A stretch of DNA of 5,793 nt, from NCBI RefSeq assembly GCF_003334255.1, contig NZ_QOWU01000103.1; one strand, written 5' to 3'. The notes under the pieces are model-generated. The model saw only the letters and a program-made list of their open reading frames with translations, made no database searches and was not told the origin of the DNA. The stretch comes from Escherichia coli. Lineage in GTDB: Bacteria > Pseudomonadota > Gammaproteobacteria > Enterobacterales > Enterobacteriaceae. The position numbers and the translations under genes were made by a program. Within the stretch, counting starts at the first letter, position 1. Each line of letters opens with the position of its first letter. Shown piece after piece: positions 659 to 1,250 of this stretch.

Positions 659-1105
659 TTACGCACTGTCTTTGGTGAGTAGCTCTTTCCCGCGTTTTTC
701 CCATTCCTGCCATTTTGGATGGTTGCGCGGTAGCTCTGCGATTCCTGCGAGTGCGCCTACCAGTTCGGCAGCACTAAACTTTGGTTTTCCGGTTTTGCTG
801 TCCACCAGTCCTGCCACAATCATGAGGCCTGCGGCCTTGTAGAGTTCATGATCCCGCGCCTTTCGTTCCGCCCTTGCGGCTGCCTTCCGTTCTGCCGCTA
901 TTATTGCCGTTACCCTGGCTTTTGCTGCGGCTGCTTTCTCTGCGGTTTTTTCTGCCCGTATCAGTGCGGACAACGTTTTTTCATCCGTCGTTGTTCGGTT
1001 TTTTTTCTCTGCCAGTAACACAAGTAATCTCTGCTGCTCTGACGGTGATTTCAGTCCGTTGATGTAGGCAATTTTTGCACTTAACCACTCTTCACGATTT
1101 GTCAT
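659..1105 (-). CDS. Putative mobilization accessory protein (MobC-like, oriT-binding), about 148 aa from the ATG at 1105. The longest ORF extends to the ATG at 1192 (177 aa) but that extension overlaps the oriT hairpin.
   Basis: Minus-strand ORF divergent from mobA with oriT between them, the RSF1010 arrangement. Ala/Lys/Arg-rich central region (AEKAAAAKARVTAIIAAERKAAARAERKAR). GAGG Shine-Dalgarno 6-9 nt upstream of the ATG at 1103-1105; none obvious for the ATG at 1192. Family assignment rests on context rather than a recognised motif. Confidence 0.5.
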   Translation of the reverse strand: MTNREEWLSAKIAYINGLKSPSEQQRLLVLLAEKKNRTTTDEKTLSALIRAEKTAEKAAAAKARVTAIIAAERKAAARAERKARDHELYKAAGLMIVAGLVDSKTGKPKFSAAELVGALAGIAELPRNHPKWQEWEKRGKELLTKDSA

Positions 1106-1189
1106 TCTTACCTCTGCACTTTTGCCGTTAATGTGAGTTGTTATTGTGCATAATATCACCTTGTCTGCCTGCGTGTGAGACCTTAAAAT

Positions 1190-1250
1190 CATCCCTGATT
1201 AATTCAGGGATGCGCACTTAGACGTTTCTCTCCTTCGTCGAGAAACAGTG
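1190..1250 (-). other. Origin of transfer (oriT), MOBQ/RSF1010-like; predicted nick on the minus strand near plus coordinates 1212-1214
   Basis: The minus strand reads GTTTCTCGACGAAGGAGAGAAACGTCTAAGTGCGCATCCCTG. The inverted repeat GTTTCTC/GAGAAAC (plus 1224-1230 and 1240-1246) and the downstream TAAGTGCGC core (plus 1212-1220) match the RSF1010 oriT (GTTTCTCGAAGAGAAACCGGTAAGTGCG^CCCT) as I recall it. A second perfect 9-bp hairpin lies at 1190-1212 (CATCCCTGA-ttaat-TCAGGGATG). Confidence 0.7.

Follow-up and report, generated by a model that had tools for sequence, protein, structure and literature searches.

We conclude that the minus-strand gene at positions 659-1105 of the window (the whole stretch of DNA analysed, 5,793 nucleotides) very probably begins at ATG-1105 and encodes the 148-residue relaxase accessory protein of a MOBQ mobilization module with two genes, carried on a ColE2-type plasmid. 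The window is a known 5716-bp Escherichia coli plasmid of this type, and its module consists of the accessory gene, the origin of transfer (oriT), and the relaxase gene mobA (Table 1). We regard the start site of the accessory gene, the family assignment of its product, and the anatomy and conservation of oriT as established. The gene is already annotated and is an ordinary mobilization helper, with nothing surprising about it among MOBQ systems.

The preliminary description had viewed the locus as a mobilization gene that adjoins oriT. NCBIfam models, the PGAP annotation, and comparison of the oriT sequences bear this out and place it as an accessory gene divergent from a MOBQ relaxase gene. 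The product of mobA matches the NCBIfam models MobQ (8.1e-29) and TraA_Ti (5.7e-29), both under their equivalog cut-offs; PGAP labels it "MobA/MobL family protein," and it is 47-54% identical to the relaxases that partner TraD-like genes in relatives. The same arrangement, with the accessory gene opposite a MOBQ relaxase gene across oriT, is found in eight diverged loci and in pTiC58. A scan of the window against Rfam returned zero matches.

Table 1. Features of the mobilization module, in coordinates of the window
Feature	Position	Strand	Basis or remark
Accessory CDS, long-form Ti-TraD family, 148 aa	659..1105	-	PGAP on identical plasmid; PF06412; relatives; codon-position bias
Shine-Dalgarno AGAGGT of ATG-1105	1110..1115	-	Anti-SD duplex -7.2 kcal/mol
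"Extension" of the 177-aa ORF, 87 nt	1106..1192	-	Non-coding: 5' leader, promoter spacer, IR2 distal arm
Candidate accessory-gene promoter	1150..1179	-	-35 CTCACA (1179-1174), extended -10 TGATATTAT (1158-1150); consensus scan
Candidate mobA promoter	1161..1189	+	TTGTCT, 17-nt spacer, TAAAAT; consensus scan
IR2 hairpin, ATCCCTGA-ATTAA-TCAGGGAT (read on the minus strand)	1190..1212		Directly 3' of nick core
MOBQ nick-region core, TAAGTGCGC	1212..1220	-	9-mer identical in RSF1010-type oriT L011
IR1, relaxase-recognition inverted repeat, GTTTCTC-9 nt-GAGAAAC	1224..1246	-	Same arms in RSF1010; kept in relatives
Outer stem arm, GCGCACT	1247..1253	-	Pairs with AGTGCGC (1218-1212), lengthening the IR1 hairpin across the nick core; DNA fold
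mobA, MOBQ (MobA/MobL) relaxase, 361 aa	1277..2362	+	Divergent from accessory gene; NCBIfam

Start codon of the accessory gene

The minus strand carries an ATG-initiated open reading frame of 177 aa at 659-1192, which ends with the TAA at 659-661, has further in-frame starts at GTG-1159 and ATG-1105, and is preceded by its closest upstream in-frame stop, a TAA, at 1201. The preliminary description had noted that this frame opens inside the 1190-1212 hairpin without a proper Shine-Dalgarno sequence, and each of these elements was found in place. The distal arm of the second inverted repeat, IR2, ends in the three bases of ATG-1192 (1192-1190); this codon is preceded only by a CAGGG that touches it (anti-SD pairing of -3.0 kcal/mol at zero spacing), and it would lie inside a local hairpin of -15.6 kcal/mol. 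ATG-1105, on the other hand, is preceded by GCAGAGGTAAGA, whose anti-SD duplex ends 3 nt ahead of the start. RefSeq/PGAP calls the gene at 659-1105 (WP_000184722.1, "conjugal transfer protein TraD").

The relatives of the accessory protein agree with this shorter form. They are 136-156 aa long (136-152 aa in nine diverged loci), and tblastn matches at 36-60% identity begin to align at residues 1-6. Among 100 full-length cluster representatives sharing at most 50% identity with each other, 86 start no more than nine residues from the start of the profile, which lies at about the Met of ATG-1105, and the median N-terminal overhang is 1 residue, whereas the 177-aa form needs 29. Further, in-frame stops lie 6-9 nt upstream of the start in four diverged loci (L003, L005, L006, and L008) and 27 nt upstream in L021, which is 76% identical, and a 1-nt indel in L020 shifts the frame of the "extension." Substitutions within the extension, counted by codon position, show no third-position bias (4/5/8 and 13/12/10), in contrast to those in the coding sequence (13/11/62 and 25/20/80, with 142 of the 211 at third positions; Fisher p = 2.7e-5). 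These comparisons of sequence indicate that the real gene is almost certainly 659-1105, starting at ATG-1105 and encoding 148 aa, as the preliminary description had proposed from the good Shine-Dalgarno sequence of this internal ATG; the RefSeq call, the N termini of relatives, and the codon-position test all support that proposal. A start at ATG-1105 leaves oriT intergenic.

It is very improbable that the 177-aa frame is itself the real product, initiating at ATG-1192 within the hairpin and adding 29 residues to the protein. No stop interrupts the frame between 1192 and 1105, the closest relatives (L017-L019, L022, and L023) retain both the open frame and the ATG, and 177-aa versions occur in a UniProt entry and in automated (Logan) gene calls. 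Yet the codon lacks a usable Shine-Dalgarno sequence and is buried in the hairpin, the extension does not evolve like coding sequence, the stops and the frameshift listed above interrupt it in relatives, N termini across the family match ATG-1105, and the candidate promoter of the accessory gene lies downstream of 1192. Moreover, the presence of the ATG is accounted for by IR2 pairing, and its retention in the closest relatives is what would be expected if it were constrained as part of IR2. ATG-1192 is the end of the IR2 distal arm and has no role as a start codon. Still less credible is initiation at GTG-1159, giving a 166-aa protein: this codon is in frame and kept in close relatives, but its anti-SD pairing is weak (-3.6 kcal/mol), it falls within the predicted extended -10 element (1158-1150), its counterpart is absent from diverged relatives, and the codon-position, stop, and frameshift evidence counts against it as it does against ATG-1192.

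An invariant nick region beside a variable hairpin

Read on the minus strand from 1246 to 1212, the intergenic region has the form GTTTCTC-N9-GAGAAAC-GTCTA-AGTGCGC, that is, an inverted repeat (IR1) followed by a conserved nick core, which is the anatomy of a MOBQ-type oriT. In RSF1010, represented here by the IncQ1 mobC/oriT region L011, which is identical to that of RSF1010, IR1 reads GTTTCTC-GAA-GAGAAAC, and the 5-nt spacing from IR1 to the core is the same in L011 as in the window. At all nine positions, the core TAAGTGCGC agrees with the consensus for MOBQ oriT sites given in PMC3832669, NWACCNNTAAGTGCGCCCTYNN; the bases 3' of the core (ATCCCT) deviate from the consensus CCCTY. From the alignment with RSF1010 and the family-wide orientation, the nick would fall within the core region on the minus strand. 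More than 450 plasmids carry, at 92-94% identity, a 63-bp block that contains IR1 (1208-1270). The segment from 1258 to 1183 of the minus strand folds at -19.9 kcal/mol, compared to -6.6 +/- 1.9 kcal/mol for shuffled sequences (z = -6.9), and none of 200 shuffles folded as well.

The preliminary description had referred to 1190-1212 as the oriT hairpin. It is not the main repeat of oriT: the RSF1010-like recognition repeat and the TAAGTGCGC core lie at 1212-1246 of the minus strand, and the hairpin, IR2, forms a further element of oriT. The two arms of IR2 (1190-1198 and 1204-1212) are complementary at nine of nine positions around a 5-nt loop. Of the 13 TraD-family loci, 11 have a hairpin at this point, immediately after ...GCGC (+0), and about 10 distinct sequences make up the stems; the chance of a stem of at least 6 bp at +0 is 0.002. 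The position of IR2 is thus conserved across relatives while its sequence covaries. In L020 and L021, the IR2 stem is kept and the loop is variable. The oriT block has diverged by only 4% where the coding sequence has diverged by 19-29%. In comparison with pSF-088-2, whose accessory protein is 32% and MobA 48% identical to those of the window, similarity ends exactly at the core and IR2 is different. Plasmids with accessory proteins of only 32% identity and unrelated IR2 sequences still agree at 95-100% of positions in IR1 and the core. A role for IR2 as a transcription terminator was rejected, as it is absent from a terminator scan and relatives do not have the T-run.

IR2 also abuts a pair of candidate promoters, both called as consensus matches only. 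The candidate mobA promoter overlaps the divergent candidate promoter of the accessory gene back-to-back, and the extended -10 element of the latter, TGATATTAT, is kept in L021 and L022. It is possible, though we find it doubtful, that the palindrome works chiefly in double-stranded form, as an operator at which a dimeric protein represses the mobA promoter, and not as a hairpin in single-stranded or melted oriT. The palindrome is a perfect one of 8-5-8 and abuts the -10 element (1184-1189) of the candidate mobA promoter, so that a protein bound there would cover the predicted transcription start, and the TraA, TraC, and TraD proteins of Ti plasmids autorepress promoters at oriT. Across relatives, however, the length of the loop varies over 3-10 nt and that of the stem over 5-8 bp; pairing is kept but half-site spacing is variable, which fits a hairpin better than an operator of fixed spacing. 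The operator and hairpin roles are in any case compatible with each other.

Assignment of the accessory protein to the Ti TraD family

The 148-aa protein contains 18.9% Ala and 12.2% Lys, has a net charge of +10, and carries a hydrophobic segment, AAGLMIVAGLVD, at residues 91-102. The preliminary description had singled out this composition and this segment as anomalies, a view that does not hold: the segment, (S/A)AGL(L/M)I(L/M/V)AGLVD, is conserved more strongly than any other block in the family and lies inside the region that matches Pfam PF06412 (TraD). That match (E = 2.4e-8, a score of 34.1 bits), which spans positions 2-61 of the 62-position model, covers the C-terminal 66 residues, that is, 108-173 of the 177-aa ORF or 79-144 of the 148-aa form. 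The same domain is precomputed for nearly all relatives, and matches in AFDB50 are named "Conjugal transfer protein TraD" and are 135-180 aa long. Moreover, the motif RK-x-D-x5-GL-x3-AGL is common to the accessory protein and the authentic TraD of pTiC58. N-terminal to this domain, ~78 residues make up an extension peculiar to the family, with the signature W-x3-R/K-x2-Y-I/L-x-G-L-K-x-P-x-E-Q-Q-R-L. In its AlphaFold model (pLDDT 92.7), the protein is all-helical and elongated, has no N-terminal strand, and places the hydrophobic segment at the end of a long helix.

Judged by its Pfam match, the accessory protein belongs to the TraD family of Ti plasmids, as a long form. It is this model that carries the assignment, since the pairwise score against the 71-aa Ti TraD is weak (E = 0.08), the profile-profile score of the two families is modest (E = 0.009 and a probability of 4.5%, from shallow alignments with Neff of 1.5-2.6), and searches of NCBIfam returned zero TraD models and nothing meaningful. 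PHROGs likewise gave nothing meaningful, and a PDB sequence search gave only noise (ribosomal L23, E ~0.5). Several other identities were considered and rejected: a ribbon-helix-helix protein of the MbeC/PF05713 MobC, NikA, or TraY type (such a Pfam match is absent, and the model has no N-terminal strand); a Ti TraC-TraD fusion (the N-terminal region has neither BLASTP similarity to TraC nor a Pfam TraC match); and a transmembrane segment, which is ruled out by hydropathy, length, and position in the model, as the last part of the long helix.

The TraD of the F plasmid is a large, membrane-anchored NTPase, and the accessory protein resembles it in name only. The chance that "TraD" here denotes a type IV coupling protein of this kind is next to nil. 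It is the name alone that favors such a reading: NCBI labels the 71-aa Ti TraD "type IV conjugative transfer system coupling protein," and small traD genes of Acinetobacter plasmids have been read as coupling-protein (T4CP) genes (PMC7693717). The window protein, at 148 aa, has no Walker A motif ([AG]x4GK[ST]), and its size and this missing NTPase motif refute the coupling-protein reading; further, its maximal 19-residue hydropathy of 0.86 is too low for a membrane helix, its predicted fold is all-helical and elongated, and its Pfam match is to the small Ti-type TraD.

The likeness to the Ti system is closest for TraD itself, the 71-aa product of pTiC58 Atu6125, which serves the TraA relaxosome as an accessory protein. 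The window protein matches PF06412 over nearly the whole model; both genes face a MOBQ relaxase gene across an RSF1010-like oriT, and in pTiC58, as in the window, IR1, the core, and IR2 lie on the accessory-gene-sense strand. However, the window protein is twice as long as Ti TraD, which does not have the conserved N-terminal extension; the 361-aa relaxase is only 29% identical to the N-terminal region of Ti TraA; and the gene resides on a small mobilizable plasmid, not on a conjugative one. We do not assign the module to the Ti Dtr system (traA / oriT / traC-traD-traG), as the traC and traG partners present there are absent from the window plasmid and the accessory protein has 148 residues instead of ~71.

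Relation to MobC and to MOBQ4 plasmids

The preliminary description had called the gene MobC-like while noting that its product was not a textbook RSF1010 MobC. The positional part of this claim stands, as the gene occupies the place of mobC beside an RSF1010-type oriT, and so does the reservation; similarity to MobC is undetectable by sequence or profile, and a Ti-type TraD label fits instead. BLASTP against RSF1010 MobC gave a nonsignificant E of 0.068, hhalign of the two families gave a probability of 0.6% with the motif unaligned, RSF1010 MobC does not match PF06412 even at E <= 10, and the MobC-family HMM scores 3.4 bits on the window protein. By these comparisons, the accessory protein is not detectably RSF1010 MobC, though it sits in the MobC position.

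The 94-aa MobC of RSF1010/R1162 has the same position and orientation as the window gene, beside a near-identical oriT core, with GTTTCTC...GAGAAAC, 5 nt, and then AAGTGCGC again read on the accessory-gene-sense strand, and its predicted helix layout is like that of the C-terminal half of the window protein. It does not have the N-terminal extension, and IR2 begins 5 nt past the core in RSF1010 and directly after it in the window. A motif proposed for a MobC/TraD superfamily comprises a basic helix and a hydrophobic RK-x-(D/E)-T-R-x-K-(I/V)-x-x-G. Tentatively, MobC, Ti TraD, and the long form could belong to one such superfamily, a possibility that we think probably incorrect and that concerns ancestry only, being compatible with our main explanation. 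The BLASTP alignment falls on the hydrophobic motif, the MobC-family and Ti-TraD profiles align across it (E = 0.0012), the predicted layouts are alike (a long basic helix that terminates in the hydrophobic motif, then a loop and two short helices), as are position and orientation relative to the RSF1010-type oriT, and the structural neighbours of the window model include a few with the name "Mobilization protein MobC." On the other hand, the motif stays unaligned when the two families are compared directly, MobC relatives lack Pfam domains (RSF1010 MobC itself missing PF06412, as above) and are never annotated as TraD, and the common segment is short and of low complexity. The weakness of the links via Ti TraD (E = 0.009 and 0.0012) stems from shallow alignments (Neff 1.5-2.6), and the top 150 matches of an exhaustive search of representatives were all long-form relatives, so that a bridge to MobC is absent among them.

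We also considered membership in the MOBQ4 plasmids (the ColE9-J and pIGWZ12 group) because of the ColE2-type Rep and the work reported in PMC6856555. These are small enterobacterial plasmids with a Rep 73% identical to that of the window, and they have the same two-gene layout with oriT in an intergenic region of ~170-180 bp. However, ColE9-J MobC, which groups with RSF1010 MobC, has zero BLASTP match to the window accessory protein, the relaxases are 31% identical in the relaxase domain only, and the search criteria that found IR2 in the window did not find it in ColE9-J. We rejected this membership on the dissimilar accessory proteins and the 31% identity of the relaxases.

Proposed function and implications

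By analogy with RSF1010 MobC, which according to the literature helps the relaxase to melt and nick oriT and increases the frequency of mobilization, and with Ti TraA, TraC, and TraD, which are believed to assemble at oriT into a relaxosome able to repress both divergent operons (PMC3907764), the basic, all-helical accessory protein would probably dimerize via its 59-residue helix, bind at or beside oriT, and aid the relaxase in opening and nicking the core. Its most plausible binding site may be IR2, as the part of oriT that changes along with the accessory protein, a covariation that is confounded by phylogeny. The bound protein might also repress both overlapping divergent promoters (1150-1189). 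In MOBQ4 plasmids, the analogous accessory gene was found experimentally to enhance mobilization but to be non-essential (PMC6856555), so the effect of the window gene could be small.

We speculate further, and consider it unlikely, that long-form TraD acts as a one-polypeptide relaxosome organiser, whose N-terminal region would read the variable IR2 beside the invariant core, so that IR2 and the accessory protein, and not IR1 and the relaxase, would pick which of several co-resident small MOBQ plasmids, nearly identical in IR1 and core, is processed, with the complex silencing both divergent promoters. The near-identity of IR1 and the core between plasmids with strongly diverged accessory proteins and unrelated IR2 sequences allows such a reading.

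The significance of these results is mostly one of annotation hygiene. One gene appears in databases at two lengths (148 aa in RefSeq, 177 aa in the UniProt entry and automated calls), and the longer form wrongly takes in part of the transfer origin. The name "TraD" misleads as well, at least one paper having read such small proteins as coupling proteins, which alters the interpretation of plasmid mobility. Beyond annotation, the combination of an IR1 and core invariant in hundreds of small enterobacterial plasmids with a hairpin fixed in position and covarying in sequence offers a cheap test of oriT specificity, that is, of how related mobilizable plasmids distinguish their own oriT from that of a neighbour.

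Start site of the accessory gene

The 177-aa open reading frame of the preliminary description (659 to 1192, minus strand) is present, with GTG-1159 and ATG-1105 as further in-frame starts and the nearest in-frame stop upstream at 1201. We place the real start at ATG-1105, as that description preferred, because six independent lines agree: the PGAP annotation, diverged homologs, profile starts, a stop and an indel in two relatives, codon-position bias, and a promoter-like site. These sequence comparisons resolve the ambiguity in that (i) PGAP annotates 447 nt, that is, 659 to 1105; (ii) tblastn matches (36 to 60% identity) on plasmids of Proteus, Pectobacterium, Paracoccus, Acetobacter, Pseudomonas, and Acinetobacter align from residues 1 to 6 of the 148-aa form, and in nine diverged loci the proteins have 136 to 152 aa, with the conserved block beginning a few residues past the methionine and, in four of the nine, an in-frame stop 6 to 9 nt upstream of the start; (iii) an exhaustive profile search gave 507 cluster representatives, and 86 of the 100 full-length ones, on which start positions were scored, begin at most 9 residues from the profile start (median N-terminal overhang of 1 residue, compared to the 29 that the 177-aa form would need); (iv) the Salmonella locus L021 (76% identical) carries an in-frame TAG 27 nt before the start, and in p838C-R1 (L020) a 1-nt indel puts ATG-1192 out of frame; (v) substitutions by codon position number 13/11/62 and 25/20/80 in the coding sequence against the related contig L022 and L021, respectively, versus 4/5/8 and 13/12/10 in the 84-nt extension (pooled Fisher p = 2.7e-5); and (vi) the promoter-like site lies downstream of ATG-1192, its extended −10, TGATATTAT, being kept in L021 and L022.

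The translation signals are also as first described. ATG-1105 is preceded by GCAGAGGTAAGA at proper spacing (anti-Shine-Dalgarno pairing of −7.2 kcal/mol), whereas at ATG-1192 this pairing reaches only −3.0 kcal/mol, with zero spacing, and the codon, as the end of one arm of the 1190-1212 hairpin, would be locked in a local hairpin of −15.6 kcal/mol. Its retention in the closest relatives is explained by this hairpin pairing. The 177-aa length occurs in UniProt/AFDB (A0A0N1QS06) and in Logan gene calls (compare the database relatives P0001 and P0017), the 148-aa length in RefSeq; the longer versions derive from automated gene calling and a single UniProt record, and are very probably products of a mis-called start.

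Anatomy of oriT

On the minus strand, positions 1253 to 1190 read GCGCACT-GTTTCTC-GACGAAGGA-GAGAAAC-GTCTA-AGTGCGC-ATCCCTGA-ATTAA-TCAGGGAT-G, and the RSF1010 oriT (IncQ1 locus L011) reads GTTTCTC-GAA-GAGAAAC-CGGTA-AGTGCGC-CCTCC-CCCTAC-AAA-GTAGGG. By this comparison, the window oriT has the RSF1010 relaxase-recognition repeat (IR1), spacer length (5 nt in both), and nick-region core; the MOBQ consensus, as quoted in PMC3832669, is NWACCNNTAAGTGCGCCCTYNN. In the window, RSF1010, and pTiC58 alike, IR1 and the core lie on the strand of the accessory-gene sense, a family-wide orientation that favors the minus strand as the one nicked.

The hairpin at 1190-1212, initially taken for the oriT hairpin itself, is instead a second element, IR2, right after the core. 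A perfect 5- to 8-bp hairpin stands at +0 after the core in 11 of 13 TraD-family loci, compared to +5 in RSF1010 and +8 in pTiC58, and the chance of a stem of at least 6 bp at +0 is 0.002. The stems of these hairpins comprise about ten distinct sequences, and their loops vary between 3 and 10 nt; in close relatives, the loop has changed and the stem is kept. Folding of oriT as a single strand gives two neighboring stem-loops, with −19.9 kcal/mol and a z-score of −6.9.

The heptamer AGTGCGC of the core (1212-1218) recurs as its complement at 1247-1253, on the far side of IR1; oriT is therefore an extended palindrome, in which the IR1 stem can extend over the core by base pairing. The same complement gives rise to a weaker core-like copy, CAGTGCGC, on the plus strand, without a spacer.

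Family and structure of the accessory protein

Residues 79 to 144 of the 148-aa form match the full Pfam model PF06412 with E = 2.4e-8; the model, named Conjugal transfer protein TraD, describes the small TraD of Ti plasmids. The motif RK-x-D-x5-GL-x3-AGL is common to this protein and the authentic Ti TraD, although the overall match is weak (pairwise E = 0.08; profile-profile E = 0.009 over 51 columns). The pTiC58 TraD has 71 aa and is encoded within traC-traD-traG, opposite traA across oriT. Given its conserved N-terminal extension of ∼78 residues, the lack of traC and traG partners on the window plasmid, and the lack of a TraD match in NCBIfam, we classify the accessory protein by sequence as a long-form relative of Ti TraD, not an orthologue. 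The gene is ordinary and already annotated.

The richness in alanine (18.9%) and lysine (12.2%; net charge +10) and the hydrophobic segment AAGLMIVAGLVD (residues 91 to 102) noted earlier are real but not anomalous, the segment being the family's best-conserved block. The AlphaFold2 model (37-sequence alignment) is all-helical and confident (pLDDT 92.7), and in it the long helix ends in this motif. PDB fold searches returned generic coiled-coil matches only, and the AFDB50 matches comprise "TraD" proteins of the long form, from Gamma-, Beta-, and Alphaproteobacteria, together with a few entries named "MobC" or "coupling protein." We rejected a coupling-protein identity, as the protein lacks a Walker A motif and is nowhere hydrophobic enough for a transmembrane segment. 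The names nevertheless collide: the NCBI label of the 71-aa Ti TraD (L016, 18213-18428) is "type IV conjugative transfer system coupling protein TraD," that of a relative in Polaromonas is "putative coupling protein," and PMC7693717 reads the small traD found on MOBQ plasmids of Acinetobacter as a T4CP; these small TraD proteins are far too small for a T4CP and lack an NTPase motif.

The protein is MobC-like by position and probable role, not by sequence family. That it is no textbook RSF1010 MobC, as the preliminary description held, is borne out by BLASTP (E = 0.068, with the alignment falling on the hydrophobic motif; the query was 100% identical to the annotated "mobilization protein C"), by hhalign between the two families (probability of 0.6%), and by the absence of a PF06412 match in MobC, whose relatives have no Pfam domain and are never named TraD. 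Remote common ancestry is possible: the MobC model has the layout of the C-terminal half of the window protein (a long helix with a terminal hydrophobic motif, then two helices), and the MobC and Ti-TraD profiles match with E = 0.0012 over RK-x-(D/E)-T-R-x-K-I-x-L-G. Membership in MOBQ4 was rejected, with MobA only 31% identical to that of ColE9-J and the accessory proteins without similarity; the ColE9-J Rep is 73% identical to the window Rep. MOBQ4 MobC proteins are stated to have no homology to other accessory proteins (PMC6856555); the 91-aa MobC of ColE9-J (L013, 6729-7004) is related to RSF1010 MobC (BLASTP, 7.7e-7; MobC-family HMM, 1e-9).

The plasmid

Positions 1-77 are repeated at 5717-5793 (77 bp, identical). 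The contig is thus circular, its two ends overlap, the actual plasmid size is 5716 bp, and the rep gene runs across the window ends. By Megablast, the sequence is 100% identical to E. coli plasmids of 5716 bp, among them NZ_AP022820.1, which is typed as mobilizable (MOBQ) and has six RefSeq genes. The AT-rich block at 2400-4800 (GC of 29 to 33%, versus 47 to 57% in the backbone; three genes) looks like acquired cargo. In L022 and L023, ∼6-kb contigs with an 88% identical accessory gene, the mobA/TraD-like module adjoins genes with TrbL (PF04610) and PF07996 T4SS domains, an unexpected neighborhood for a small mobilizable plasmid.

Features of the plasmid, its oriT, and the accessory protein
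Feature	Position	Strand	Remark
ColE2-type replication initiator	5239-5793 continuing into 78-452		RefSeq; across window ends
Conjugal transfer protein TraD	659-1105	−	RefSeq/PGAP
MobA/MobL relaxase	1277-2362	+	RefSeq; opposite accessory gene across oriT
Hypothetical protein, 238 aa	2383-3099	+	One hydrophobic helix; no Pfam match
LysE-family translocator	3157-3729	−	RefSeq
Hypothetical protein, 316 aa	3736-4686	−	Weak CmoA-like SAM-methyltransferase similarity
IR1, RSF1010 recognition repeat	1224-1246	−	
Nick core TAAGTGCGC	1212-1220	−	Same as RSF1010
IR2	Arms 1190-1198 and 1204-1212		Perfectly complementary; starts directly after core
Promoter-like site, accessory gene	−35, 1179-1174; extended −10, 1158-1150	−	Downstream of ATG-1192
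AlphaFold2 helices, 148-aa form	Residues 4-16, 23-33, 39-97, 112-123, 130-147		

Possible role at oriT

Our data establish where the gene starts, to which family its product belongs, and how oriT is built and conserved; the role of the accessory protein there we infer from literature precedents, including the Ti proteins TraA, TraC, and TraD. According to PMC3907764, which cites Cho & Winans 2007, these three are believed to assemble into a relaxosome at oriT, one also able to repress both divergent operons. By analogy, the accessory protein, which is basic, helical, and probably dimeric, would sit next to the nick core and assist MobA in opening and cleaving it; in the bound state, it would also occlude the two overlapping promoter-like sites (1150-1189), one of which abuts IR2. 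The best candidate for its binding site is IR2, because IR2 varies along with the protein. Deletion of the analogous MOBQ4 gene cuts mobilization by 0.6 to 1.5 logs without abolishing it (PMC6856555), and it would be no surprise if the present gene, too, had a quantitatively modest effect.

In relatives with 19 to 29% divergence in the coding sequence, the stretch at 1190-1290 has diverged by only 4%. More than 450 other small plasmids, of the Col156 type, share the 63 bp at 1208-1270 with 92 to 94% identity (92 to 95% for the block of IR1 and the core), although their relaxase is only ∼48% and their accessory protein ∼32% identical. In pSF-088-2 (L015, 1394-1570), with MobA 48% and the accessory protein 32% identical, identity runs up to the core (...GCGC) and then stops, IR2 being unrelated. 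This pattern suggests that oriT cross-recognition between such plasmids may be possible, with IR2 as the discriminating element.
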